DNA from: Pseudoalteromonas translucida KMM 520
Lineage (GTDB): Bacteria > Pseudomonadota > Gammaproteobacteria > Enterobacterales > Alteromonadaceae
Length of the DNA stretch: 32,000 bases
Direction of reading: 5' to 3'
NCBI RefSeq assembly: GCF_001465295.1
Contig: NZ_CP011035.1
Span: forward strand, 90,001-122,000
Positions 2 to 21,312 of this stretch are shown piece after piece. How positions within the stretch are numbered: position 1 is the stretch's first letter; the number at the start of each line of letters is the position of its first letter. The position numbers and the translations under genes were made by a program. The notes beneath the pieces are model-generated. The model searched no databases. It was not told where the DNA came from and saw only the letters and a list, made by a program, of their open reading frames with translations.

Positions 2-532
<531 letters not shown>

Positions 533-556
533 CCTTATCTGCAGGTAAATAAACAC

Positions 557-587
557 AGGGGAGTATTAATTACTCCCCTATTTTTTT
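557..587 (+). terminator. rho-independent terminator of katG
   Basis: Perfect 9-bp stem aggggagta (557-565) / tactcccct (571-579), a 5-nt loop, then T7 at 581-587. Confidence 0.8.
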
Positions 588-683
588 GGGGCATAGTTCC
601 TTAAAAGCCATGTTTGCATAAACAGAAAAGAATGGGAGTAAATAACCAGACCTAAAACATATGGTTCATGGCATTATTAACTC

Positions 684-721
684 CTCTAAAAGCGCAGCGC
701 CTCATAACCTCTTTGTGAGTT
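684..721. repeat. about 38-bp intergenic repeat (family C), first copy
   Basis: ctctaaaagcgcagcgcctcataacctctttgtgagtt recurs almost identically at 12944-12980 (ctctaaagcgcagcgcctcataccctctttgtgaatt). Both copies are intergenic. Confidence 0.7.
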
Positions 722-772
722 AATCATTTAATGAGGCTATTGCCCGCAACTCGAAGCGCAAATAACAAGCAC

Positions 773-804
773 AAAAAAACGGCGCTAAAGTTAGCACCGT
801 TTTT
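773..804 (-). terminator. probable rho-independent terminator of ybiT (minus strand)
   Basis: Stem 779-787 / 792-800, 9 bp, with one position that is a G-U wobble in the minus-strand RNA. A7 at 773-779 gives a U-tract on the minus strand. It lies 36 nt downstream of the ybiT stop. Confidence 0.6.
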
Positions 805-839
805 ACTTAATACTTAAATAAAGTACTTAAAACCTGTTA

Positions 840-2441
840 TTACGCTACTTTTTTCTCTTCACAACTGGCTAGGTATTCGTCAAACGAGCCTTGAAAGTCG
901 ATTACTTGCTTATCTTTAATATCGATAATACGCGTAGCAAGTGACGATACAAACTCACGGTCATGGCTTACAAAAATAAGCGTACCTTGGAAGTCTTTTA
1001 ACGCATTGTTAAGTGCTTCAATGGCTTCCATATCCATGTGGTTTGTAGGCTCGTCCATTACGAGTACGTTAACGTCTTGCATCATTAACTTACCAAATAA
1101 CAAACGGTTTTTTTCACCACCTGAACAGTTACGCGCTTTTTTGTTTGAATCGTCTGCTGTAAACAACAAACGGCCTAACATGCCACGTACCATTAAATCG
1201 TTGTGCTTAGCTGTGCGCCACTGCGACATCCAATCAAACAAAGTTAAATCGTTGTCAAAATCTTTAGTGCTGTCTTGCGGGCAATAACCAAAAGTAGCAT
1301 TTTCAGACCACTTAACTTCGCCCTCTAAGCTTTTAAGCTCGTCTACTAAACAGCGTAAAAAGGTGGTTTTACCCACACCATTTTCGCCAATTACTGCAAG
1401 CTTAGCGCCGGCTTCAAGTAATAAGTCGCCGCCAGAGAACAACATTTCGCCATCAAAGCCATGGCCAATTTTGTTAACTTCAAGCGCTTGGCGATACATT
1501 TTTTTACCTTCGTCAAAGCTCAGCGAAGGGCTCATACGGCTTGACGATTTAACTTCATCAAGTTTAATTTTATCCATTTTTTTAGCACGCGAACTTGCTT
1601 GTTTCGCTTTAGATGCGTTAGCACCAAAACGGTTAACAAAGTCTTGTAGTTCGTCAATTTCAGCGCTCTTTTTCGCGTTTTCAGCAAGTAATTGCTCGCG
1701 TTGTAGGCCAGCGGCTTCTAAAAACTTCTCGTAGTTACCAGGGTAAATACGCAGCTCGCCGTAATCAATATCGGCCATGTGTGTACATACCGAGTTTAAA
1801 AAGTGACGGTCATGCGAAATAATAATCATGGTACATTTACGCTTGTTAAGCTCGTTAGCAAGCCAGGTAATTGTATGAATATCCAAGTTATTGGTAGGCT
1901 CATCGAGTAGCAAAATATCAGGGTTTGCAAACAACGCCTGTGCTAAAAGCACACGTAGTTTCCAGCCTGGCGCTACGTTTGCCATTAAGCCATAATGAAA
2001 TTCTTTATCGATACCCGCTTCTAGCAAAATTTCTTCAGCGCGGCTTTCTGCCGTGTAACCGTCCATTTCTGCAAATACGCTTTCTAGCTCAGCTACTTTC
2101 ATGCCATCGTCTTCGCTCATTTCTGGCAAAGAGTAAATACGTTCGCGCTCTTGCTTTACTTTCCAAAGCTCCACGTCGCCCATAATTACAGCGTCAACTA
2201 CGCTAAATTCTTCAAACGCAAACTGGTCTTGGCTTAGGTTACCTACTTTTAACCCTGGAGTAATAGATACATTACCCGCACTTGGCACAAGTGCCCCGCT
2301 TAAAATTTTCATGAAAGTCGACTTGCCGCAGCCGTTAGCGCCAATTAAACCGTAACGGTTACCGTTACCAAATTTAGCTGAAATGTTTTCAAACAACGGC
2401 TCTGCGCCAAACTGCATCGTGATATTTGCGGTGGAGATCAA
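840..2441 (-). CDS. ybiT: ABC-F family ATPase (energy-dependent translational throttle family), YbiT orthologue
   Basis: 533 aa with two ABC cassettes: Walker [10 protein letters not shown] and GENGVGKTT, signatures [13 protein letters not shown]-type, Walker [12 protein letters not shown] and [11 protein letters not shown]. It is collinear with E. coli YbiT as I recall it (..[37 protein letters not shown]..). A TTG start is implied by N-terminal conservation. Confidence 0.9.
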
Positions 2442-2599
2442 AAAAATGTAATCCTAGAAAAAGTACTGACAGGGATAGGCTGCAGCAAAACGCCACAAAC
2501 AAGAACCAGACAATAGGGTAAATTAGCTGGCGAATTATACAGATCCAAAGCCAAAGATGAAAGGTAAAAGAAACTTAAAAAATAGCCAGTAGAGCAAGA

Positions 2600-2750
2600 G
2601 CCGGTTTTAGATGTCAGGCTTGAGGTTTTAGGTAAAAATTAACCAAGGTTAATGTACAAGAGTAAGCGGGAGTTTACTTCGTGCTTATGGGCGAGCTTGC
2701 TGACGCGAAAAGCGCAGCTTTTAATGTGTAGGCACGATTATACATCCGGA
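2600..2750. repeat. mosaic intergenic repeat (family B), copy 1
   Basis: The modules gttttagatgtcagg, gcgggagtttacttcgtgct and agcttgctgacgcgaaaagcgcagcttttaat recur in the same order at 22975-23100. Single modules recur at 17655, 19490, 25937 (reverse complement), 31888 (reverse complement), and in the tails of the repeats at 11391-11430 and 11735-11775 (reverse complement). Confidence 0.65.
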
Positions 2751-2993
2751 TTAATTTAAACGTGTTGTGTGGGTTTTTAAATTTAGTAATAACAAAAACT
2801 TGTACTTAATTGTTTAAAAGTTAAGGCTAAATTTACATAATTGTAAAAGCAGGCGCGTATTAATGATAACGGCGTAGTTTTTATTGGTTATATAACTAAT
2901 AAGCCTATATTTATTTTTACCAATCAGGTAAATTGTTTTAAATGAATACTAACTTAATAATACGTTAGTTATTAACAGATAAACCAAGGAGCG

Positions 2994-3599
2994 GTGTGTC
3001 TCGTGTCAAACTCCACACTTAGTTACTACAATCAAAACGCACAAAGCTTTAGTGACTCAACCCTAAATGTTGATATGTCAGTGCTGTATGCTGAATTTTT
3101 GCCACATGTTACCGAACATGGTCATATTTTAGATGCAGGCTGCGGCAGCGCCCGCGATGCTGCTTATTTTAAACAGCTTGGTTTTACTGTTAGCGCGTTT
3201 GATGCCAGCGAACAACTTGCTGCATTAGCAAGCAGCTACTTACAGCAACCCGTCGACGTTAAAACCTTCCAACAGCTAGATTGCGTTAATAAATACGATG
3301 CTATTTGGTGCTGCGCTAGCTTATTGCACGTGCCAAAAGCTGAACTTCTGCAGGTGTTTTTAAACCTACAAAATGCACTAAAACCCAATGGGGTTTTGTA
3401 TGTATCGTTTAAATATGGCGACACAGAGCGTGTGCATAATGGCCGTGAATTTACCGATTTAACTGAAAATGGTTTAACGCATTTACTTAGCCATACGCAG
3501 TTAAAAGCGATTAAACAATGGCAAAGTGTTGATCAGCGCCCAGAGCGCGAAAGTGAAGTTTGGCTAAATGCGCTGATTAAAGTAGTACACGTTTTATGA
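2994..3599 (+). CDS. class I SAM-dependent methyltransferase (small-molecule/Methyltransf_11-12-like, not a canonical DNA MTase)
   Basis: 201 aa. Motif I is ILDAGCGSARDA, followed by an acidic residue at the end of beta2 (VSAFDAS) and post-motif YDAIWCCASLLHV..LKPNGVLYVSF. There is no (D/N/S)PP(Y/F/W) or PCQ/ENV DNA-MTase motif. GTG start at 2994 (AGGAG at 2986-2990), or the in-frame GTG at 3003. The stop overlaps the next start (ATGA). Confidence 0.8.
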   Translation: MCLVSNSTLSYYNQNAQSFSDSTLNVDMSVLYAEFLPHVTEHGHILDAGCGSARDAAYFKQLGFTVSAFDASEQLAALASSYLQQPVDVKTFQQLDCVNKYDAIWCCASLLHVPKAELLQVFLNLQNALKPNGVLYVSFKYGDTERVHNGREFTDLTENGLTHLLSHTQLKAIKQWQSVDQRPERESEVWLNALIKVVHVL

Positions 3600-5134
3600 T
3601 TGGAGCAATGCAGCAACAGCTCGACTTTATTGCGTATATTCAACGAATGTTAGTTGAAGGGGACTTTAGCGCAACTTATAAGTTTGCCTTGCTGCATGCT
3701 ATTGCCGATGTATGTGTAGAACAGCCGTTATTGTCAGATCAAAGTGAATTAGTAATAGAGTTACCTACACTTGCCGATAAATTAATTACCTTATATTGGC
3801 ATCATGCAATGCCGTTTCCGTCAGAACATACCGGTGAAAGCGCTCTACTTTTGCAAAACACAGGCGCGCAATCAAAAGTGATTAGCGTATTGTTTGAATG
3901 CCAACAAAACAATATTCGTAATTTACGCCAGCTAAAGCAAAGTTCATTTTACAAACCGACTTTTAATGCAGCTATGGCAACATTGAAAAGTGGTCCGCTT
4001 TGGCGTTTACAAATACTTGCCAAACAAGAAGAATGCTTTTTATACCCGCACACTAAAAACACTAAATTCATTACCTTAAATGCAGGTATCGCCAGTTGCT
4101 TTAGACGTTTTTATGATTTAGTAGTGTACTTAGCTAAAAATGCGTGGCTGCAAAAAATTCAAAGTATAAAGTACAACCAAACACTTATTGGCCCGCAAAG
4201 CCAACTGCACGACTTTTTATTTGGCTTTGATCGTAACGCACTCACAAAAGCAAAACCTGTGTTAGTAGAGCTGCAATCAAACTCATGCTTTTATTGCCAA
4301 AAGCCAATGAAAAACGATATTGAGGTCGATCACTTTATACCGTTTTCCCGCTACGCAAACGATCTTGGCCATAATTTTGTGGCTGCGCACCGCACATGTA
4401 ATAACAATAAGCGCGACTTTTTAGCTGCGCAGCAACACCGTGAGCGTTGGCAAAAGCAAAACTTGGTTGTTAACAGCCAAATTATTAATAATGAGCTAAG
4501 TGCGTATTTTCACTGCGATGCAGATAAGTCACTCGCAGTAAGCAATTGGGCGTATCAGGTGGCACAAGCCAACAACGCTAAATTATGGCTTGGAAATAAA
4601 GACCATTTTGAGCAAGCAAAACCAACCGCCGATATAGTGGCTTTCCCGCAAGCAAAACAAACAGAGTTAAATCAAGTTGCAGAGCCTGTTATTAGCTTAA
4701 AATCAACTGATGATGCGCTAAAGCTGCCGTATTTCCCCAATATTAAAATTGCTTGTGGGCATTTTAAAACAGGGGATGAGAGCGACATAGAATTAATGGA
4801 TGCGCCACTTGGTGCAGGCAAGCTCGATCCGCAAGTACACTTTTTAGCGCATGCATGGGGTAACTCAATGAATGGTGGTAAAAATCCGATTAACGATGGC
4901 GATTTACTGTTACTTGAGCTTATAACACCCGATAAAGCGGGATCGCTACGCGGCCAAATTGTCGCGATTGAGCGAGATGATATAGGTGGTGACGGGCAGT
5001 ATTTACTGCGTAAAGTTAATAAATTACCTAATGGGCAATATGAGCTAATCGCTCAAAACCCAGATTATGAAGTAATGATTGCTGATGACAGCATGCGAAC
5101 ATTCGCACGGTTTAAGCAAGTGGTTGTGGAATAA
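3596..5134 (+). CDS. three-module protein: unassigned N-terminal domain + HNH nuclease motif + C-terminal S24 (LexA/cI/UmuD-like) peptidase domain
   Basis: 512 aa. The HNH motif is at nt 4286-4420: CFYCQKPMKNDIEVDHFIPFSRYANDLGHNFVAAHRTCNNNKRDF (CxxC..DH.IP..N..H..CN..K). The C-terminus aligns by eye with lambda cI/LexA: GNSM (Ser424, nt 4865-4867) ..INDGDLLLLE.. GQIVAIE.. YLLRKV (Lys473, nt 5012-5014) ..NPDY. The upstream IKIACGHF (Cys387-Gly388, nt 4754-4759) resembles the (A/C)-G self-cleavage site. Confidence 0.8.
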   Translation: MIGAMQQQLDFIAYIQRMLVEGDFSATYKFALLHAIADVCVEQPLLSDQSELVIELPTLADKLITLYWHHAMPFPSEHTGESALLLQNTGAQSKVISVLFECQQNNIRNLRQLKQSSFYKPTFNAAMATLKSGPLWRLQILAKQEECFLYPHTKNTKFITLNAGIASCFRRFYDLVVYLAKNAWLQKIQSIKYNQTLIGPQSQLHDFLFGFDRNALTKAKPVLVELQSNSCFYCQKPMKNDIEVDHFIPFSRYANDLGHNFVAAHRTCNNNKRDFLAAQQHRERWQKQNLVVNSQIINNELSAYFHCDADKSLAVSNWAYQVAQANNAKLWLGNKDHFEQAKPTADIVAFPQAKQTELNQVAEPVISLKSTDDALKLPYFPNIKIACGHFKTGDESDIELMDAPLGAGKLDPQVHFLAHAWGNSMNGGKNPINDGDLLLLELITPDKAGSLRGQIVAIERDDIGGDGQYLLRKVNKLPNGQYELIAQNPDYEVMIADDSMRTFARFKQVVVE

Positions 5135-5136
5135 TA

Positions 5137-5408
5137 ATTGTAGCTGCGATTTTATCTCGCGCTCATAAATTGTTTTTTGCGTGAAGATTTAAAGGGTTTA
5201 AAAACCTCTATTTGAGGTTTTATCGCCGTGGGATCACACTTTATCTTCAACTTACGTTATTGATGTGAACGTAACCAGCGTAGATAGGCCATCCATGGCC
5301 AAGCTACGCTTTTTACAGCATTGCCGAAAGGGATTTAGGTACTTGGAGTTTGTCGGGAACAAAATTCCACCATGCTGTAAGCACTCACCATCAACTAAAT
5401 TTAATTTT
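5137..5408 (-). repeat. structured intergenic repeat (family A), left copy, inverted relative to the copies at 10673-11775
   Basis: By-eye alignment of 5224-5405 with the reverse complement of 11455-11650 is near-identical over long blocks (gaacgtaa.cagcgtagataggccatccatggccaagctacgcttt; gggatttaggtacttgga.tttgtcgggaacaaaattcc). The outer part 5137-5223 parallels the reverse complement of the 11650-11775 tail (aattgtag...ctcgcgct). It contains the 32-nt two-tier hairpin at 5278-5309 and the hairpin at 5201-5221. Confidence 0.75.
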
Positions 5409-5544
5409 TGATTACATATAGTTAGGTGTATTTATTTATGAACGCATGCAGGAGTTGAAGTATATTGGTTAGTAATTGTTTATTAAGTATTAGTAAATTA
5501 CTTTCTCTTAGAACTTGTTATTTTTTAAAATTAAGGAATATTTT

Positions 5545-7470
5545 ATGTTAACGTGGATTATAGATGAGCTGACCCAAAGAAGCCGACGAGGTAGAAAGTC
5601 GTTGGTTAATAATTTTAAGGTTGAAGGCTGGGCTGATGGGTATATTTTTATACGTGAGTTATTCCAAAATATTTTGGATAACCGTATTAATCCAAGTGAA
5701 CCAGCAAAAGTATTTATAAACTTTGAAAAAATAAAAACTACCGAAGCAATTAAACAATATCAGATGCTCGTTAAGCCAATACATAAGCATTTAAATGCAT
5801 CAGAAACTAATTATTCTGGTATTTCCGAAAACCCTACAATGTTGGTTATAAGAGAAGAAGGGACTACTGGCTTTAAAGGTGAATATACTGATAGTGATGC
5901 AGAGAATAGCGATTGGGCAAACTTTTTTTTTGGGGAAGCATTAGAAGCTAAATCAGGGGCTAAAAACGGAAGGGCAGGCCAAGGAAAGATAATTTATTAC
6001 ATGTTGTCACAATTAAGGTGTGTCTTTTTAGTTACTAAAAGAGCTGAGGATGGAAAACTACTTTTAATGGGCAATATTAATTTATCAAGAACTCATAAAT
6101 GTGAAGATAAAAGTTACGAGACTTTTGGTTTTTGGGCAAATAATAAAAGTGAACAGCCTTTACCATGTGAAGATGAAGAGTATATTAAAGAGTTTTGTAG
6201 AAATTTCGGTGTAGATATATCTACATTGGATAGTGGAAACGTATATTTTATACCCCAACCATCAGAAGAATTAACAGAGAGTATTATTATTCAAGCATCT
6301 GTCCATGACTTCTATTTTCCTATTTTAAGAAACAGGCTTGCAATAGAAGTTGGCAGTAAACTTATAAATAAAAATAATCTTATCTCAATTGCAAAAGCAA
6401 ATTCACACAAGTTTACAGATAAATATGACTATGCTCCATCCTCTGAATTTTTAGACTTTGTAGAGCAGTGTATTAACTTAAAAATACTTTCACCTGTAAA
6501 AAATGTTCGGTGGAGTGGAAGTGAAGATAGTTTCTATAACATTTATGATGAGCAAACAATAAAGGAAATAAAGAAAAAATTTGACAAAGAAAAAATAGTA
6601 GCTATTCAGGTACCCATATATATTTCCGAAAAAAATGGAAATAACTATACTGAAAATCTTTATGTGTACCTTAAACGTTCTGAAGTAATTGAGCAAACAG
6701 AAGAAGCTTTTATCAGGACTGATTTATTTATAGCAAAAGAAAGACGATTAAGAATTCACACAGGTAAAAATGCTTTTGGTTTGGTTGTAGCTGATGAAAG
6801 AAGCCCTAATCTGGCTGAGTTCCTTGCAAATGCAGAAGAAGCTTCTCACTTAATATGGAGTGCGAAAGAGAGTAAGGTTGAGGATAAATATAAAAATATT
6901 AAGAATACTTTAGCTAAAGTCCGTCAATCATTACCTAAGTTATTCAATCTTTTACTGGATGATGAGGAAAGTGAGGATAGGGCATTTCTTGTAGGTTTAT
7001 TATCTGTTCCAGTTGATGAGAAACTCTCAAGAAAGAAAAAGAAAAAAAAGAAAAATATAGATAATAAAGGAGGCGAAAACCCAGCTCCTACAGAGCCTAT
7101 TCCTAGTAAATTGCCAATGATTATTCTTTCAGACCTTCCTGATGTGAATGGTTTTATGGTTTCCCCTACTGAGTATATCAAAGAGCAAGATGTGCCTTTC
7201 GAGATAGAGTTAACTGCAGCTTTTGATAATGTTTTATCGGAAGGTAATCCACTAAAGCTATATACTCATCTAGACTTTGACTTTTCAGCGTTGAATCAAT
7301 TTAAAGTATATGAGAATAATTGTGAAGTGATATCTGCTGACTTGAACAAAATATTTTTAAAAGTAAACAGCAATGATTTCAAGTTTTCTATATCAGGATT
7401 TAATAGCAGCGTACCATTGAAAGTCAAATACAGAATAACTCAAGAAAATGATAAGGATATTGAGCTATGA
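5545..7470 (+). CDS. GHKL/Bergerat-fold ATPase-like protein (MORC/Hsp90/sacsin-like N-terminal domain) with an unassigned C-terminal half
   Basis: The ORF is open from TTG at 5515. ATG at 5545 is preferred (AAGGA at 5532-5536, 8-nt spacer), giving 641 aa. N-box IRELFQNILDN (E-x3-N-x2-D, nt 5653-5682); G1-like box VIREEGTTGFKG (nt 5854-5880); G2-like box NGRAGQGKIIYY (nt 5968-6000). The stop overlaps the next start (ATGA at 7467-7470). Confidence 0.72.
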   Translation: MLTWIIDELTQRSRRGRKSLVNNFKVEGWADGYIFIRELFQNILDNRINPSEPAKVFINFEKIKTTEAIKQYQMLVKPIHKHLNASETNYSGISENPTMLVIREEGTTGFKGEYTDSDAENSDWANFFFGEALEAKSGAKNGRAGQGKIIYYMLSQLRCVFLVTKRAEDGKLLLMGNINLSRTHKCEDKSYETFGFWANNKSEQPLPCEDEEYIKEFCRNFGVDISTLDSGNVYFIPQPSEELTESIIIQASVHDFYFPILRNRLAIEVGSKLINKNNLISIAKANSHKFTDKYDYAPSSEFLDFVEQCINLKILSPVKNVRWSGSEDSFYNIYDEQTIKEIKKKFDKEKIVAIQVPIYISEKNGNNYTENLYVYLKRSEVIEQTEEAFIRTDLFIAKERRLRIHTGKNAFGLVVADERSPNLAEFLANAEEASHLIWSAKESKVEDKYKNIKNTLAKVRQSLPKLFNLLLDDEESEDRAFLVGLLSVPVDEKLSRKKKKKKKNIDNKGGENPAPTEPIPSKLPMIILSDLPDVNGFMVSPTEYIKEQDVPFEIELTAAFDNVLSEGNPLKLYTHLDFDFSALNQFKVYENNCEVISADLNKIFLKVNSNDFKFSISGFNSSVPLKVKYRITQENDKDIEL

Positions 7471-8270
7471 AATTGAGTGGAATTCATACAACAAATCCAA
7501 CAAAAAGACTAAAAATCCCAAGTGATAAAATTAGTATTACTTTACATACTGACTCAGATGGTAATGAAGCTTTTGAGTTAGACTTAGTATTATTATCAGA
7601 TGTTATATTGGGAATGAATTTACAAGATGTATCTGCAAAAGTTAGTTTATATGCTTATTCTTCTAATGCTGAGCAAGAGTATGAGCTAGGAACAGTATCA
7701 AGTTTTAAAAAGCCATCAAACCTATTACTAGAAGAGCTGGACTTTGCTTCACTTAAAGGGTTTAGGTTGATAATCTTTAATGATGCTCAACAGATAATCG
7801 CGAGTAATGAAACTCTTAAGTATCGCTCAAATGATGAGCCAGAAGATGAAAACTCACTTCTAAATGTAGAGCTTCTAGATCTTGGACAGAGAATTTGGAA
7901 AGTTAAACTTTCTGATGATACCAACCCTATTTTGGTATTAAACAAATCAATTCCAAACATTAAAAATGTAGTAAAAGACAATTCAGGTATTCTTGGCTGT
8001 ATACTTCCTGAACTAACAAAAGAATGTATTGTTCATTTAGCTTTTAATAAAGCCGCTGATATATATGATAAAAGTTGTTGGCAGTACAATTGGGGGAAGT
8101 TTTTGGAGTCATTCGGAATACAATTCGAAAATATACCTGACTTACTTGAAGAGCCTAGAGAGTATTACTCATTATTAAACACTATCGATGATTTATTAGA
8201 AAGTTACTGTTTTCAGAAAAAGTTTGCTAGTAAATTTGCAAAAGATATAGGAGTAGCAATAAATGATTAA
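7467..8270 (+). CDS. hypothetical protein, 267 aa (operon gene 2)
   Basis: Long ORF in an AT-rich, stop-codon-rich context. There is a 4-bp overlap with the upstream gene and an 8-bp overlap with the downstream gene. I recognised no motif. Confidence 0.68.
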   Translation: MKLSGIHTTNPTKRLKIPSDKISITLHTDSDGNEAFELDLVLLSDVILGMNLQDVSAKVSLYAYSSNAEQEYELGTVSSFKKPSNLLLEELDFASLKGFRLIIFNDAQQIIASNETLKYRSNDEPEDENSLLNVELLDLGQRIWKVKLSDDTNPILVLNKSIPNIKNVVKDNSGILGCILPELTKECIVHLAFNKAADIYDKSCWQYNWGKFLESFGIQFENIPDLLEEPREYYSLLNTIDDLLESYCFQKKFASKFAKDIGVAIND

Positions 8271-8997
8271 TATTTCCGTTTTTAATGAGTTCGGACTTCA
8301 AATCTTTAGAGAGTATATAGAAAGTAAAGGGCTTAAAGAGTTACCAAAAGATATTTTGATAGGTGAACAGTATTCGCAAGTTATTTCAAATGATATTTTT
8401 CTTGATGAGTCAAAAAGTTTTGAAGATAGATTAATGATGGCAAAGTACCTTGATGAAACTGTATCGGCAAATATCTTTGATTTATTCGATAATAAACCAG
8501 AATTTTGGAGTTGGATTTGTTGCTTATATATTGAACAAATAATTCAGAATGGTAAATTTAGTAAACCAGAACACTATATTTATATGCCTGGTAGAATAGT
8601 CTACAGACATTCTGTTGCAACGCCTGTAAGGCTATATAGGCAGCATGGCCATGATATTTCTAGAATGCTTATCAGTAATAAAATGCATGTGTGGGGCGAG
8701 CTAGCTGAGCAAATTAATGGGCGTCAATACTTAACTCGTTCAAAAAAGTTACTTAATTTCATTTGTAATTTATATTATGACAGAAATAAAGATAGCTTAA
8801 AGCCTAGTACTGGCTCTAAAATTTCTAGTAAATTATTAAAAAATGGAGAAAGATCAAGAGCTGGTGAAGGAGGGGCAAGAAGAGTTGCTTTACAGCTAAA
8901 AAGGTTATCACTTAATTATAAAGTAGATGCAATGGATGTAACTAGCATTAATTCCCTTTTACCTTCTGAATATGAAAAGTTTATAAGTAATAATTAA
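8263..8997 (+). CDS. hypothetical protein, 244 aa (operon gene 3), with a basic C-terminal segment
   Basis: AGGAG at 8246-8250 lies upstream of ATG 8263. The start overlaps the gene-2 stop (ATGATTAA). I recognised no motif. The C-terminal third is K/R-rich (KNGERSRAGEGGARRVALQLKR). Confidence 0.68.
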   Translation: MINISVFNEFGLQIFREYIESKGLKELPKDILIGEQYSQVISNDIFLDESKSFEDRLMMAKYLDETVSANIFDLFDNKPEFWSWICCLYIEQIIQNGKFSKPEHYIYMPGRIVYRHSVATPVRLYRQHGHDISRMLISNKMHVWGELAEQINGRQYLTRSKKLLNFICNLYYDRNKDSLKPSTGSKISSKLLKNGERSRAGEGGARRVALQLKRLSLNYKVDAMDVTSINSLLPSEYEKFISNN

Positions 8998-9004
8998 GTA
9001 GAGG

Positions 9005-10546
9005 CTAATCAAGCCCTCTTTCTGAAAGGGCAATGATTACCCCCCCAATCTGCTGTGCCAAATACGGTGGCACAGCATTACCTACCTGCACATACTGGTT
9101 AGTTCTCGTCCCTTCGAAAATATAATTATCAGGAAATGTTTGTATACGTGCGGCTTCACGTACGCTTAAACTTCTGCACTGCTGTGGGTCATAATGAACA
9201 AAGTAATGCCCATCTTTTGAGATATGGCTTGTGACTGTCGTTGCATATTTATTGGCAACTTGAACCCTAAATCGATCTGAATGTGTTCCAGTATTCCAAT
9301 TAGCATGGGCCGGGGCTAGTTCTTGTGGGAAATGACGAGATTTAGGTGATAAACCTTGGATTTTTGCATATGCTGCACAGTATGAGTAACGTAGTAAGTC
9401 ATCAACCATATGGCCTCTAGTTTCATGATTTAGAACTACTTTAAGGCTTGGATCGATATACCAAGATTTTAAAGGCTCTGGCATGATAGGAGCTTTGTTA
9501 CTTAAAGCTTTCTCTTTTCTTGTTAAGCCTATTTTTGGTAAAAGGTTCAAGCTATTTGCTGATTCTTCATTAAATTGCTTTGTCAGAATTACTTTTAATT
9601 TAGCTGCATTTTTAGTAACAGCTGTTTCCCAATCTTTTGCATTATCTTTTTGTTTTGAAAAGCCGCTGCGTAAATTTGGTAAGTCACTAATAACTTGTTC
9701 TACGGTAACTTGGTGTTCGCATAGCTTTAGTGTTTCTGGGGTTGCTTTAATATCCTCACGTACACCTAGTAAAATTACACGATGCCTAGCTTGAGGTATA
9801 CCGTATTGCTCACAACGAATTAAAAAATCAGCAGAATCTTTGTATTGTGGGTCTTCTGGATTGTCAGCATCAACGACTAATGAATAGACTTTATATTTTG
9901 GAATTTTTTTGTGTTTTGTTACTGAGCCAGGGCTGCGCAAATCTTCTAATATTTGCGGAAACATGACTTGGCCGTTCACTTTTGCCGTAAGTATCCCTCT
10001 TACATTTTCCATCACAAAAATATCAGGCTTCGCTAGGCAAATTACTTCTAAGTACTCTTTGTATAAAAAGTGGCGAGCATCATCTTCTGCTATGTAACTT
10101 TTGTTACCAGCATTTCGTGAACGTCCTGCAAGTGAATAGGCTTGGCATGGAGGGCCGCCGATTAGAACTTTTGGGCCTTTATGCTTTTTGACGAGTTCCT
10201 TTATGCGTTTATGGATTAGCTTATTGTCTTTGCCTAGTTCTTTTGCACCATTTAGAGTTTCTTTATTGGCTTCTGTTGCAACATCAGGATGGAGCTTGAA
10301 TAACTCATCTCTTGTAATTTCACCATGTAGATAACGATAGTAATTATTTAATGACTGAGATTTGGTTTTGAGTGTACGATAAAACGCACGAGTTGTTAAA
10401 GTTTGATGAGCATGGACATCCTTCTCAACAGAAATACCTATTTGAAAAGGTAATTTACCATCAGAAGTTTGAGCCGCTGAAATTCCTTCCCCAAGCCCAC
10501 CAGGGCCAGCGAATAAATCAATGACCAGAATTTCACCGTTTACCAT
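9005..10546 (-). CDS. dcm: DNA (cytosine-5)-methyltransferase
   Basis: All canonical C5-MTase motifs are present in order: I DLFAGPGGLGEG, II SVEKD..A..T, IV GGPPCQAYSLAGR, VI FVMENVRGIL, VIII QARHRVILLGV, IX REAARIQTFPDNYIFEG, X VGNAVPPYLA. 513 aa. Confidence 0.93.
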   Translation of the reverse strand: MVNGEILVIDLFAGPGGLGEGISAAQTSDGKLPFQIGISVEKDVHAHQTLTTRAFYRTLKTKSQSLNNYYRYLHGEITRDELFKLHPDVATEANKETLNGAKELGKDNKLIHKRIKELVKKHKGPKVLIGGPPCQAYSLAGRSRNAGNKSYIAEDDARHFLYKEYLEVICLAKPDIFVMENVRGILTAKVNGQVMFPQILEDLRSPGSVTKHKKIPKYKVYSLVVDADNPEDPQYKDSADFLIRCEQYGIPQARHRVILLGVREDIKATPETLKLCEHQVTVEQVISDLPNLRSGFSKQKDNAKDWETAVTKNAAKLKVILTKQFNEESANSLNLLPKIGLTRKEKALSNKAPIMPEPLKSWYIDPSLKVVLNHETRGHMVDDLLRYSYCAAYAKIQGLSPKSRHFPQELAPAHANWNTGTHSDRFRVQVANKYATTVTSHISKDGHYFVHYDPQQCRSLSVREAARIQTFPDNYIFEGTRTNQYVQVGNAVPPYLAQQIGGVIIALSERGLD

Positions 10547-10672: not shown

Positions 10673-10925
10673 AAGCTGAGATAATTCCCCGTGATCACGC
10701 CCGAAATTGAAATAATGATGAGTAATTTACAGCATGGATGCTGTTGAAAAGCGTAGTTTGGCCACGGATGGCCTATCTACGCTGATTACGTTCATATCAT
10801 TAATTTGAATTGAGGAAGTAGTGTGATCCTCGGGGCGCCGTGGGGTTCCAAGGGGCGGTCGGCGGTATCCACCCCTTGGTTGCCATCGCCAACGCGATAT
10901 GTATAAATAATTTGCAATTAAAAAA
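10673..10925 (+). repeat. structured intergenic repeat (family A), right copy R1 (internally shorter)
   Basis: It shares with R3 the blocks gctgaga.aa..cc-gtgatcac.cccgaaattgaa.taatgatgagtaat, the 32-nt hairpin (10751-10782), gattacgttcatatcattaatt, gtgtgatcctcggggcgc, hairpin 2 (10848..10879), ggttgcc.tcgccaacgcga and tttgcaattaaaa. Confidence 0.75.
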
Positions 10926-10995: not shown

Positions 10996-11149
10996 TAAAG
11001 CCACTCCCTGTTTGCGAACATTCAGTTTACTAAAATACGGTACAGCTACAAGTATTAATCGTCTAAGTTACTAGTAATTAAGTATAAACGTGTGAGTTAA
11101 GTACTAGGCGAGCGAGTAATTAAAGGATGATGCTAAGAAACCCTCCCCT

Positions 11150-11435
11150 TCAACTTCACCTGAAAACACATAATTAATGAGTAATTACCTCGCATGGAGG
11201 CGAGGAAAGCGATGCTTGCACATGGATGTGCTTTCATCGCGTTTACGTTCATATTAATTTAGTGTTTAAAGATAAGTGAAATTGAGGGGCGCTGTGGGGT
11301 TCCAAGGGGCGGTCGGCGCTTTAATTTGGTAAAGAGCGCCCCTTGGTTGCCGTCGCCAACGCGATATATAACTAATATTTGCAATTAAAAGCTCAAGCGC
11401 GAGGTAAACTCCCGCCTACAATTTGAAGGCTGACG
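11150..11435 (+). repeat. structured intergenic repeat (family A), copy R2 (sequence-divergent, structure-conserved)
   Basis: It has the same module order as R1/R3. Its hairpin 1 (11219-11250, gcgatgcttgcacatggatgtgctttcatcgc) differs in both arms yet still pairs. Hairpin 2 is at 11302-11346. The tail gcgcgaggtaaactcccgcctacaat is the reverse complement of a family-B module. Confidence 0.7.
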
Positions 11436-11439
11436 CTGA

Positions 11440-11775
11440 GACAACACTCCGTGATCACACCCGAAATTGAATTAATGATGAGTAATAAGCTGCGCATGGC
11501 GGAATTTTGTTCCCGACAAATTCCAAGTACCTAAATCCCTTTAGGCAATGCGCGATAAAGCGTAGCTTGGCCATGGATGGCCTATCTACGCTGATTACGT
11601 TCATATCATTAATTACAATTGAAGAAACAGTGTGATCCTCGGGGCGCTGTGAGATTCCAAAGAGAGACCAGCGTTTGCCTTTCTTTGGTTGCCGTCGCCA
11701 ACGCGACATATAACTCAAATTTGCAATTAAAAGCCTAAGCGCGAGGTAAGCCCCTGCCTACAATTTAAAGGTTTC
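11440..11775 (+). repeat. structured intergenic repeat (family A), copy R3 (longest; best match to the left inverted copy)
   Basis: See the alignment with 5137-5408. Hairpin 1 is at 11560-11591 and hairpin 2 at 11657-11688. Confidence 0.78.
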
Positions 11776-19761: not shown

Positions 19762-21312
19762 CTATTCTTTAGTTTGCATATTTTTAGCACGCTGCTCGGC
19801 TTCGATCAGGGCTTGAGATTTAGGTTCGCGTTTTTTCTGCGCTATTTCTGGCTTTTTAGTTGAATTTGGATCCCAGCTATCATCCAGCGATAGGTTGGCA
19901 AATGGGTTGCTGTTGTCTATTTGCACATTTTGCGCTTTAGGCTCAGCTATTGGTTTTGGCTGTTGGTTTGTATCTGCTTTTATTACAGGCTTTGCTTTAC
20001 TGCCTGGTAGCGGTGCATCGGGATCAAATGTACGCACTTCGGGCTCTTTAAATTCGGGCTCGGTATTAAATGAAGTTGCTTGCTCTGTGCTGCTGTTTAC
20101 AGGGGAGTGTATATTTGTTGTTGGTTGCTGCGCAATAATAGGCTCTGGGCTGATATTAGCGGGCTCAATTGTATTTTGAGCTGGCGTTTGATTATTAATT
20201 GCTGCTGGCGCTTGTTGAGTAACCTGTTGCTGACGCTGCTTTTTAGTAGGCAGTGGTGCATCGGGATCGAACATGCGTACTTCTGGCTCGGCAAAGTCGC
20301 TGGCATTTTTGATTCGCTCTAAGGTGTTTTTAGCCGCGGCTTCAAACTCCGCGGTATTGGGCTCTGGTTTTGTTTTGGGCTTTTCATTACTAAATGTTGT
20401 ATTGGCTGTTTTAGCTACGGTTTCTGGCTCGCTAGTACTTGCTTGTGGTTTTGCCAATGCCGCATCAATTTGCTGCATTGAAACCGGCTCAGCCGCAGGT
20501 TGTGCTGTTGTCGTATTTTGTATATTTACGGCGCTAGGGCTTGGCTTAACTGTCGATTTAACTGCCGATTTAGTTACTTGTTCAGTTACTTGTTTAGTAA
20601 CGGATGTGGTAGCAGCTGGGCTAGTTGGCAGTACTGTTGCCACATCAGAATTACTTTGTTTAGCTCGGCGCATGCGTACTAAAACCATTACCCCAATAAG
20701 TACTATTAGCAATAATAATAAGCTGGGTAGCAGTAGTGAGGCGGCGCTTTCGCTGTTTATTTTTGATACTGGCGCAGGTTTTACACTCGCTGGTTTTTGC
20801 GCAGCTGCGATGGGATCTGCGCTTACTTCTGTAGCGTTTGCCTGTGTACTTTCAGCCGCCGGATTTTTTATATCAGTGCTTTTTACATCCGAGCTTTTTA
20901 TATTGGCAACGGGTTCATCAGTCGTTACTTGGCTTGTTTGACTAGGGTTTGCTTGTGGCTCGGTATTAATACTAGCGGTATTGTTTGCCTCAGAGTGTGT
21001 TTTTAAAGGCTCAACAATAGGCGTTGGAATAGACTCAGTAACCGGCTCAGTAATAAGCTCACGCAGTGCGTTCTGGGGCTCTGGATCGTTAACAATAGTA
21101 TGCGGTTTTGGCTGGGTTGGTGTTACTACCGGCTTATTGCAATTTTTATTATAGTCGCGCGCGGCATTACGGTAGCTGCGGCCCGTTTTATTATTACTGT
21201 GCTGCTGCATTTCTTGTTTTATAAGTATGCACATAGCTTGGTTATAGGCTGCGCTATTAAAGCTATAAAATAGGGCAACACAAAGGGTCAGGCGTGTGAG
21301 TATTTTTATCAT
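19762..21312 (-). CDS. low-complexity P/T/Q/A-rich protein with a signal peptide, one central TM helix and a duplicated EPEVRxFDPDAPLP motif
   Basis: 516 aa. The N-terminal signal-like segment is MIKILTRLTLCVALFYSFNSAA. The TM segment is LLLPSLLLLLIVLIGVMVLV followed by RMRRAK. Two copies of EPEVR(M/T)FDPDAPLP are present. The long opposite-strand ORFs here are compositional artefacts. Confidence 0.7.
   Translation of the reverse strand: MIKILTRLTLCVALFYSFNSAAYNQAMCILIKQEMQQHSNNKTGRSYRNAARDYNKNCNKPVVTPTQPKPHTIVNDPEPQNALRELITEPVTESIPTPIVEPLKTHSEANNTASINTEPQANPSQTSQVTTDEPVANIKSSDVKSTDIKNPAAESTQANATEVSADPIAAAQKPASVKPAPVSKINSESAASLLLPSLLLLLIVLIGVMVLVRMRRAKQSNSDVATVLPTSPAATTSVTKQVTEQVTKSAVKSTVKPSPSAVNIQNTTTAQPAAEPVSMQQIDAALAKPQASTSEPETVAKTANTTFSNEKPKTKPEPNTAEFEAAAKNTLERIKNASDFAEPEVRMFDPDAPLPTKKQRQQQVTQQAPAAINNQTPAQNTIEPANISPEPIIAQQPTTNIHSPVNSSTEQATSFNTEPEFKEPEVRTFDPDAPLPGSKAKPVIKADTNQQPKPIAEPKAQNVQIDNSNPFANLSLDDSWDPNSTKKPEIAQKKREPKSQALIEAEQRAKNMQTKE

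Follow-up and report, generated by a model that had tools for sequence, protein, structure and literature searches.

A probable paraMORC2-type GHKL ATPase in a putative restriction-modification-like cassette of Pseudoalteromonas translucida KMM 520

The subject of this study is a 641-amino acid (aa) open reading frame (ORF), termed gene 1, which lies in a 32,000-nucleotide (nt) stretch of the Pseudoalteromonas translucida KMM 520 genome (hereafter the window) together with two downstream genes (gene 2 and gene 3, or g2 and g3) and a gene for a C5 cytosine DNA methyltransferase (Dcm; Table 1). Gene 1 is very likely to encode a protein of the GHKL fold that retains an intact catalytic set, and it is predicted with good assurance to be an active nucleoside triphosphatase. 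The case is also fairly strong that gene 1, acting with g2, g3 and, in the clade of homologs to which it belongs, Dcm, powers a cassette for defence or of a restriction-modification-like kind. The overall interpretation favoured here, which is held to be probable with a little less assurance, is that gene 1 is an active, highly divergent GHKL+S5 ATPase, most probably of the paraMORC2 family, that would serve as the ATP-gated DNA clamp of a restriction-modification-like cassette.

The fold was assessed from an AlphaFold2 (AF2) model of gene 1, which was built with 13 homologs in the alignment and reached a mean predicted local distance difference test score (pLDDT) of 77 and a predicted template modelling score (pTM) of 0.70. 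Comparison of this model with the PDB using Foldseek returned GHKL ATPases at all of the first 41 positions, with probabilities of 0.82-1.00, so that the GHKL (Bergerat) fold proposed in an initial annotation made from the DNA letters is now matched by structure. The best matches were the full-length chains of M. mazei Topo VI-B (E values of 3.5e-7 to 1.4e-6 over ~724-756 columns), followed by Hsp90 N domains (from 5e-4), Topo II ATPase fragments (6.5e-4), MORC3 (6.7e-3) and MutL (2e-2), and the two-domain fragments of the Topo II ATPase and MORC3 were aligned over ~470-510 columns. Template modelling (TM) scores were 0.26-0.30 against full-length targets and 0.39-0.52 when normalised to Hsp90 N domains. 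Among the viral models in BFVD, the best named matches were topoisomerase 2 and rIIA.

Sequence profiles were silent by comparison. The gene 1 protein had no match in Pfam (including HATPase_c and HATPase_c_3) or NCBIfam at E up to 0.1, and among 60 relatives no GHKL-type Pfam match was obtained at E up to 0.01, the lone match being a spurious one to PRIMA1. Searches of PDB sequences with phmmer and hmmsearch, using 1, 13 or 60 sequences as query, likewise found nothing matching gene 1. Detection through HATPase_c or HATPase_c_3 profiles, as had been suggested at the outset, therefore failed with the Pfam, NCBIfam and PDB profiles, and a check of the CD-search or HHpred type would probably be negative too. 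When the family profile was aligned by hhalign with single MutL and HtpG sequences, the N box of gene 1 fell on 'VVKELVENSLDAG' of MutL and 'FLRELISNASDA' of HtpG, although only the N box was aligned and the probability was low.

The ATG at 5545 is regarded as the real start of gene 1 because the N termini of three homologs (P0001, P0002 and P0004) line up with it and because nucleotide similarity to the two nearest relatives (L012 and L014) begins precisely there. A Shine-Dalgarno-like AAGGAA lies ~8 nt 5' of this codon. Residue numbers given here count from this ATG; those of the initial annotation were counted from an upstream TTG at 5515 and run higher by 10, and its nucleotide spans were right except that their 5' starts were off by 1-3 codons.

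A word-indexed search yielded 13 relatives of gene 1, and an exhaustive profile search brought the family to 4063 representatives of clusters made at 50% identity when E values up to 1e-3 were accepted, or to 1191 with a limit of 1e-30. Nearly all members are full-length, at 600-655 aa. A scan of the genome contig collection found 2 gene 1 loci only, the plasmid collection yielded distant homologs and no others, and no homolog was found in the phage collection. Conservation was counted over 150 aligned representatives. In the N box, R37, E38, Q41, N42 and D45 are kept in 145-147 of these, and for E38, Q41, N42 and D45 (146-147 each) the remaining three sequences are gapped; E38, a putative general base, N42, a putative Mg ligand, and D45 are the residues that the initial annotation had picked out as E48, N52 and D55. 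The G1 box, which the model places at the C-terminal end of a β-strand (residues 98-105), carries G109 and G112 in 150/150 sequences and T107 in 143/150, and K136 is kept in 148/150. The G2-like box proposed earlier is likewise present, with GRAGQGK invariant or nearly so: G142 and G147 occur in 150/150, K148 in 149/150, and G145 is at or close to invariance. Between the G1 and G2 boxes, residues 132-145 have a pLDDT below 50, as expected of a mobile ATP lid.

One nucleotide-site position varies. At the adenine-contacting column of the G1 box, Asp is found in 110 and Glu in 40 of the representatives, and gene 1 has Glu104; the family consensus is IEDFGTxGLxG, in which the Gly spacing is one residue longer than in the canonical DxGxG. 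The initial annotation had put a Glu-Glu pair in place of the Asp. A Glu is indeed present, but only the first of the two (E104, its E114) occupies the equivalent position, and E105 is not conserved. The 40 Glu-type proteins lie almost entirely among the top-scoring matches to the gene 1 profile (two are lower) and reach down to 23-25% identity. Since Glu104 is kept across this deep subclade while the other nucleotide-site residues are invariant, the change is best described as a conservative replacement, which argues against a degenerate ATPase. On the alignment, Glu104 would be a subfamily-specific swap for Asp that is compatible with nucleotide binding and gives no sign of inactivation; nucleotide preference or kinetics may differ in this subclade.

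The opposite view, put forward as one option in the initial annotation, is that gene 1 is a degenerate, regulatory ATPase, the Asp-to-Glu change having abolished adenine binding and left only a scaffold or sensor. It can point to the Glu itself, standing where an Asp should contact adenine, and to the failure of all GHKL sequence profiles to detect gene 1. This view is nevertheless improbable: the remaining catalytic motifs are invariant, Glu104 is fixed in all 40 representatives of the subclade down to 23% identity, indicating purifying selection on a carboxylate, and the sister clade, which keeps Asp, has identical architecture and partners. The family makes it possible to ask whether Glu can take over from the adenine-binding Asp that the Bergerat fold is supposed to require.

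What had appeared as a large unassigned C-terminal half of gene 1 could be divided, on the AF2 model, into a helical insert, an S5/transducer-like sheet, a Lys/Pro-rich disordered linker and an Ig-like β-sandwich (Table 1). The S5-like module comprises strands 352-362, 367-379, 386-396 and 409-416 followed by a helix (421-430). At the end of the third strand stands Arg391 (codon 6715-6717), present in 150/150 representatives, and directly after the helix lies an ExxxH motif (E431-H435, nt 6835-6849, within FLANAEEASH; family consensus FLGDAExPxH), of which H435 is kept in 150/150 and E431 in 148/150. The earlier statement that no S5 fold and no transducer lysine could be seen is thus probably wrong, given the sheet-helix module, the invariant Arg391, the ExxxH motif and the length of the two-domain Foldseek alignments. 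In MutL, Topo II/VI, Hsp90 and MORC, the S5/transducer domain gives a basic 'sensor' residue to the γ-phosphate, and Arg391 would be the obvious candidate for this residue in gene 1. The acidic stretch, the K7 run, the Pro-rich linker and the β-rich C-terminal module described in the initial annotation were all found again; the position of the Lys-rich stretch is conserved in the family consensus, and the β-sandwich contains a conserved DFD motif (577-579; D577 in 148/150) and GF(D/N) (618-620; G618 in 149/150, F619 invariant or nearly so). The lower Foldseek matches of the gene 1 model are Ig-like domains, namely the CP2c DNA-binding domain, collagen adhesins and CTLA-4.

Gene 1 does not stand alone. 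In the Glu-type lineages L002/3, L004, L006/7, L008, L009, L012 and L014, g2 and g3 follow immediately 3' of g1, and among 80 Asp-type metagenome loci the order g1-g2-g3 was found in 64/64 of those having enough downstream sequence. From this gene order and the overlapping stop and start codons, g2 and g3 are judged to be obligate, translationally coupled partners of gene 1. The g2 product is 100% identical to PTRA_b0098 (chromosome II of P. translucida KMM 520) and has few conserved polar residues (N10, R100, D138 and N159). In g3, Y114, H116, Q155, Y171, K180, R207 and E236 are conserved together with a Gly/Arg-rich loop, and among the polar residues only H116, Y171 and E236 are invariant. 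Even profiles of 38-45 sequences gave no match for g2 or g3 in Pfam, PADLOC or the PDB. An AF2 model of g3, built from 9 close sequences, had a pLDDT of 40 and was not used.

Directly upstream of the operon, the closest relatives, whose g1 is 73-75% identical to gene 1, have a conserved gene of 74-76 aa, helical and with a Lys-rich tail, located 12-13 nt 5' of g1 (L012:931-1161 and L014:308-538). It was also seen in L002, L004, L006 and L008 and in 12/73 Asp-type loci, and it gave no helix-turn-helix, Pfam, PADLOC or PDB match.

The structural matches raise the question of a topoisomerase. Topo VI-B has the domain order GHKL, H2TH, transducer and Ig-like C-terminal domain. The four modules of gene 1 (GHKL, helical insert, transducer-like, Ig-like) follow the same order, and the full-length M. 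mazei protein (PDB 9o8p and 9o0g) is its best structural match. Gene 1 might accordingly be the B-like subunit of a type IIB-topoisomerase or Spo11-like cleaving machine in which g2 and/or g3 would be the A subunit. Sequence identity to Topo VI-B is, however, only 8-10%, and the global TM-score is just 0.26-0.30. Sequence methods, the only ones applied to this point, gave no Toprim or winged-helix 5Y-CAP signal in g2 or g3; the conserved Glu plus DxD triad is not in either protein, the invariant polar residues of g3 being those named above; and neither has a Pfam or PDB match. The linkage to Dcm, Vsr and AIPR genes suits restriction systems rather than topoisomerases. A Topo VI-like machine is accordingly thought quite improbable, and the paraMORC2 reading is preferred.

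The paraMORC2 proteins are a family of GHKL+S5 ATPases delineated by Iyer, Abhiman and Aravind (2008, Biol Direct 3:8; PMC2292703), with a strongly conserved ExxxH in the C-terminal part of the S5 domain as their hallmark. According to the parts of that paper dealing with these families, the paraMORCs have neighbourhood ties to DCM, Vsr, AIPR, nucleases and helicases, and it was predicted that MORC/paraMORC GHKL ATPases are the motors of many restriction-like systems and the ancestors of the eukaryotic MORC silencers. As described there, paraMORC2 resembles gene 1 in that a GHKL domain, which stands at the N terminus and keeps its ATP motifs intact, precedes an S5-like domain with ExxxH, and resembles the gene 1 family in its sporadic, laterally mobile distribution with DCM, Vsr and AIPR neighbours. 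Around the gene 1 family, Dcm is a frequent neighbour, and Vsr, HhH-GPD, AIPR and HNH genes stand near some loci, which fits the paraMORC2 association. Because ExxxH is the paraMORC2 hallmark and the association with DCM and Vsr is shared, gene 1 is assigned to paraMORC2, an identification that motif and context make only slightly the better bet. The same description has paraMORC2 as mainly cyanobacterial and Gram-positive, whereas gene 1 is gamma-proteobacterial, and it names neither a pair of partner genes like g2 and g3 nor an Ig-like domain at the C terminus nor a Glu in the G1 box.

Membership of MORC proper was considered and rejected: the S5 motif G-h-x-h-h-p-x-x-R-h-l given for MORC in the corresponding part of PMC2292703 is absent from gene 1, where the family column eight residues before R391 holds E, K, S or D and no conserved Gly. 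MutL, MORC/paraMORC and the ATPase modules of topoisomerases make up the GHKL+S5 class, in which gene 1 is predicted to fall, and by analogy with MutL and MORC an ATP-driven N-terminal dimerisation into a DNA-entrapping clamp would be expected. MutL also resembles gene 1 in that a long and flexible stretch rich in Pro connects its separate C-terminal domain, but the endonuclease/dimerisation domain that forms the C terminus of MutL is not in gene 1.

The Dcm of the window is intact and matches PF00145 (3.3e-45), TIGR00675 (3.9e-39) and a DrmMII-like model (5.6e-98). Nucleotide homology of the window to L012 and L014 continues to 10546, and Dcm orthologs of 44-46% identity adjoin gene 1 homologs in other lineages; the enzyme is presumed to be the cognate modification enzyme of the cassette. 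In the Glu-type clade, Dcm is next to the operon in 7/8 lineages and in three arrangements (downstream and convergent; upstream, co-directional and accompanied by Vsr; or upstream and divergent). For Asp-type homologs, neighbours were counted at the 21 loci flanked on both sides by 2 kb or more of sequence: a C5 methylase was found at 8, an HhH-GPD glycosylase at 5, DEAD/ResIII helicases at 3, HicB at 3 and Vsr at 2. The adjacency of Dcm is higher in the Glu-type than in the Asp-type (7/8 vs 8/21; Fisher p = 0.035). In one Glu-type locus (L005, contig ERZ26694059, 8163-13481), Dcm is split into ORFs of 313 and 207 aa, g2 is cut to 201 aa and g3 is barely recognisable, its match not being significant; the parts therefore decay together. 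The GC content is 31-33% in g1-g3, 39% in the methylase and 41.6% in the rest of the window, and the flanking genes are housekeeping genes; by its composition and setting the cassette is a low-GC mobile insert.

Two other accounts of the Dcm linkage were weighed. In the first, the operon would serve defence or abortive infection independently of methylation, would have a solitary Dcm as a mere neighbour and would sense some other feature of invading DNA or infection. Consistent with this, 13/21 Asp-type loci are without an adjacent methylase and stand beside housekeeping genes (ThiI, CobS, PrpF), and the Enterococcus relative is paired with AIPR, with no annotated methylase within ~6 kb upstream or 3.4 kb downstream. 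It is rendered rather unlikely by the Glu-type adjacency, which recurs in three arrangements and with diverged orthologs at a higher frequency than in the Asp-type, and by the joint decay of Dcm and g2/g3 in L005. The second is that gene 1 is a MutL-like repair accessory that aids Vsr or a glycosylase in repairing T:G mismatches arising from deamination of the 5-methylcytosine (5mC) made by Dcm. Dcm, Vsr and HhH-GPD genes do recur beside the operon, and PMC2292703 discusses an analogy with MutL as it works in mismatch repair and in very-short-patch repair. The Dcm of the window, however, has no adjacent Vsr, many loci have no Dcm, Vsr or glycosylase, and the cassette, a mobile insert of low GC content, occurs in defence islands alongside TIR, ThsB, SMODS and AIPR genes. 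Such a repair role is given very little credence, and a restriction-modification-like or defence cassette is the reading carried forward.

Relatives and neighbourhoods at greater distance were also recorded. An Enterococcus faecalis plasmid relative keeps the three-gene layout (AIPR followed by proteins of 639, 288 and 262 aa), as do haloarchaeal plasmid relatives (620-629 aa, 336-356 aa and DUF6339, with Dcm nearby). One haloarchaeal protein aligned with the gene 1 family profile with a probability of 99.5% over 410 columns, which include the N box, 'VEDRNTTGLIG', 'GLGK' and 'AEPPEH', its version of the ExxxH motif. Compared as single sequences with g2 and g3, the second and third genes of the Enterococcus and haloarchaeal relatives gave no significant match. 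The haloarchaeal order (L098, Halobaculum plasmid, 508-8876; L097, Haloplanus plasmid) is RHH, GHKL (620 aa), a 336-aa protein, DUF6339 and an SprT-like protein, followed by a convergent 'ATP-binding protein' (677 aa) and a DNA cytosine methyltransferase. DUF6339 sits where g3 would be, although homology is not demonstrable; the idea that g3 is itself a DUF6339 protein, suggested by this haloarchaeal third gene, gave a profile-profile probability of only 9.9% and is not claimed.

The cassette of L005 adjoins SMODS and SLATT (CBASS-like) genes, a KAP NTPase and a Fic gene. In L006/L007 (JGI contigs, 1-21881), it lies in a mobile defence island with ThsB-TIR, a second TIR protein and Nmad2, together with a dCMP-deaminase/HMUDK_hel/thymidylate-synthase-like trio that suggests base hypermodification, and with AlpA regulators, a resolvase and TrwC/TrwB conjugation genes. 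In the Asp-type loci L020, L028, L033, L042 and L050, the gene directly after the co-directional Dcm encodes an HhH-GPD glycosylase of ~225 aa, presumably a T:G mismatch glycosylase in the role of Vsr. In L009 (4905-6425 and 12071-13816 of a Lentisphaeria chromosome), genes for Vsr and an HNH_2 endonuclease stand directly 5' of g1, a fusion of an N6/N4 methylase with an Mrr-type nuclease domain is encoded downstream, and a C5 methylase was not found within 7 kb.

Among catalogued defence candidates, the nearest is PDC-M33, a three-gene cassette nominated as a phage-defence candidate by 'guilt-by-embedding' in PADLOC (Payne et al., bioRxiv 10.1101/2024.01.29.577857). The PADLOC model PDC-M33A (profile length 627) matched gene 1 at 1.9e-19 over residues 36-294, that is, over the GHKL part only, and matched 60/60 relatives, the best at 8.8e-36. 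PDC-M33 thus resembles g1-g2-g3 in having three genes and an A protein related to gene 1. No PADLOC model matched g2, g3 or their Asp-clade homologs, even at E up to 10, and identity of the cassette with PDC-M33 as modelled was rejected, as protein A alone matches. On these profile matches, the gene 1 cassette would represent a family related to PDC-M33 with different or very diverged partners.

A mechanism can be proposed for the paraMORC2 reading. Binding of ATP would dimerise the N domains of gene 1 and close the N-terminal gate, by analogy with MutL, MORC and Topo VI-B. Within the pocket, E38 would serve as the general base, N42 would hold Mg, E104 would contact adenine N6 and R391 would sense the γ-phosphate. 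The C-terminal part of the protein would hold the dimer and/or the partners, and the ring would close on DNA with the Lys-rich linker as its lining. ATP turnover, sensed via R391, would then license an effector on DNA without the 5mC mark of the cassette, and the adjacent Dcm would protect the host. Candidates for the effector, and for the component that would cut DNA if any does, are g3, g2 or a D/E/H cluster around the ExxxH of gene 1.

In a bolder and frankly speculative extension, which we think unlikely as a whole, g1-g2-g3 would be a self-contained and widespread immune machine, of a type new to biochemistry, built on a MutL/MORC/Topo VI-B-like, ATP-gated DNA clamp. Its effector would be either a new nuclease fold (in g3 or at the DAExxxH of gene 1) or no nuclease, foreign DNA then being entrapped or compacted in the manner of MORC. 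A 5mC methylase could be added for self-marking but would not be required, and the Glu-type G1 box would mark a subfamily whose nucleotide preference or kinetics are altered.

Several observations weigh against the interpretation of gene 1 as the paraMORC2-type clamp of such a cassette. HATPase_c_3, the Pfam model that covers MORC-type proteins, does not match gene 1, and the assignment to paraMORC2 was made from the motif and context descriptions in the 2008 paper. The S5 assignment comes from one AF2 model made with 13 sequences and from Foldseek alignments with TM-scores of 0.26-0.39. No recognisable nuclease domain was found in g1, g2 or g3 using Pfam, PADLOC, NCBIfam and PDB profiles. The 13/21 Asp-type loci with no methylase within two genes mean that dependence on methylation is not universal. 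Finally, the 76-aa upstream gene is absent from window positions 5135-5544, and the copy of the cassette studied here could be impaired.

To our knowledge, almost none of the MORC/paraMORC-type GHKL ATPases has been studied apart from the Shedu-type fusion. No paper characterising the gene 1 family was found in the literature, where 'PDC-M33' and 'paraMORC2' were confined to their two source papers, and VcSduA was the only experimentally supported defence GHKL protein found. VcSduA is a paraMORC3-type Shedu protein in which GHKL is fused to a DUF4263 nuclease; its ATPase is needed for anti-phage activity, as judged with an E27A mutant, and its GHKL domain is thought to gate the nuclease via a clamp-like middle domain (PMC12137116). 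The nuclease of VcSduA is fused and recognisable, whereas gene 1 has no identifiable nuclease and its effector would presumably be a separate subunit. The gene 1 family is not a one-off; it is large, uncurated, with neither a Pfam nor an NCBIfam model and with no recognisable nuclease, and it was probably foreseen computationally in 2008. An account of how the cassette tells DNA apart and disables it would supply a missing entry in the catalogue of restriction-modification and defence systems and could show what a prokaryotic MORC-like clamp does, and the P. translucida KMM 520 cassette is a compact example in a cultivable host.

Table 1. Coordinates of gene 1, its motifs and modules, and the neighbouring cassette genes (residues counted from the ATG at 5545; nucleotide positions are those of the window).
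Feature	Residues	Nucleotides	Strand	Basis or description
Gene 1		5545..7470	+	641-aa ORF; GHKL + S5-like ATPase, paraMORC/MutL/Topo VI-B-like architecture
N box (motif I), IRELFQNILDN	36-46	5650-5682	+	Conservation and hhalign
G1-like box (motif II), VIREEGTTGFKG	101-112	5845-5880	+	Codon 5854-5856 gives E104, where Asp is canonical
ATP-lid region and G2 box (motif III)		5938..6000	+	K136 and GRAGQGK (G142-K148)
G2-like box, NGRAGQGKIIYY	141-152	5965-6000	+	Read from the translation
Acidic stretch, LLLDDEESEDRA	469-480		+	Read from the translation
K7 run	497-503	7033-7053	+	Followed by Pro-rich stretch
GHKL domain	about 30-262			AF2 model
Helical insert	279-347			AF2 model
S5/transducer-like sheet and helix module	~352-435	6598..6849	+	AF2 model, conservation
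Long helix	452-470			AF2 model
Disordered linker	474-521	6964..7107	+	pLDDT <50; tail of acidic patch, K7 run, Pro-rich stretch
C-terminal Ig-like β-sandwich	526-633	7120..7443	+	8-9 strands, pLDDT 73-90
Gene 2 (g2)		7467..8270	+	267 aa, isoelectric point 4.7 (acidic); start overlaps gene 1 stop (ATGA)
Gene 3 (g3)		8263..8997	+	244 aa, isoelectric point 8.95 (basic); 8-nt overlap with g2
C5 cytosine DNA methyltransferase (Dcm)		9005..10546	-	513 aa, intact; convergent, 7 nt from g3 stop

Upstream of the cassette, on the forward strand (2994-5134), two genes overlap by 4 nt: the first encodes an S-adenosylmethionine (SAM) methyltransferase (201 aa) that weakly matches PADLOC mad2, and the second a 512-aa protein. 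The latter has an N-terminal region of no known type, carries an HNH nuclease motif at residues 231-274 and, at its C terminus, a LexA-like S24 peptidase domain (384-498), and gave no PDB sequence match. These two genes were rejected as parts of the cassette, as they are not conserved beside its closest relatives and a repeat element separates them from g1; the pair may form a nuclease module of its own, triggered by damage or by RecA.

Copies of the Rfam TwoAYGGAY RNA motif bracket the cassette. Two lie downstream on the forward strand (10677-10843 and 11137-11297, at 59.5 and 51 bits), and an inverted copy lies upstream on the reverse strand (5236-5341) at 39.6 bits, just under the cut-off of 43. 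Inverted arms at 5269-5375 and 11494-11600 are 93% complementary over 107 nt, and unannotated copies of the upstream element, ~92% identical, occur on chromosome II of other Pseudoalteromonas strains. The element may be a repeat or insertion hotspot, instead of or besides an RNA. Elsewhere in the window, a 516-aa ORF on the reverse strand (19762-21312), for which there was no Pfam match, lies in a stretch where the AT skew (-0.34) and the GC skew (+0.17) are unusually strong.

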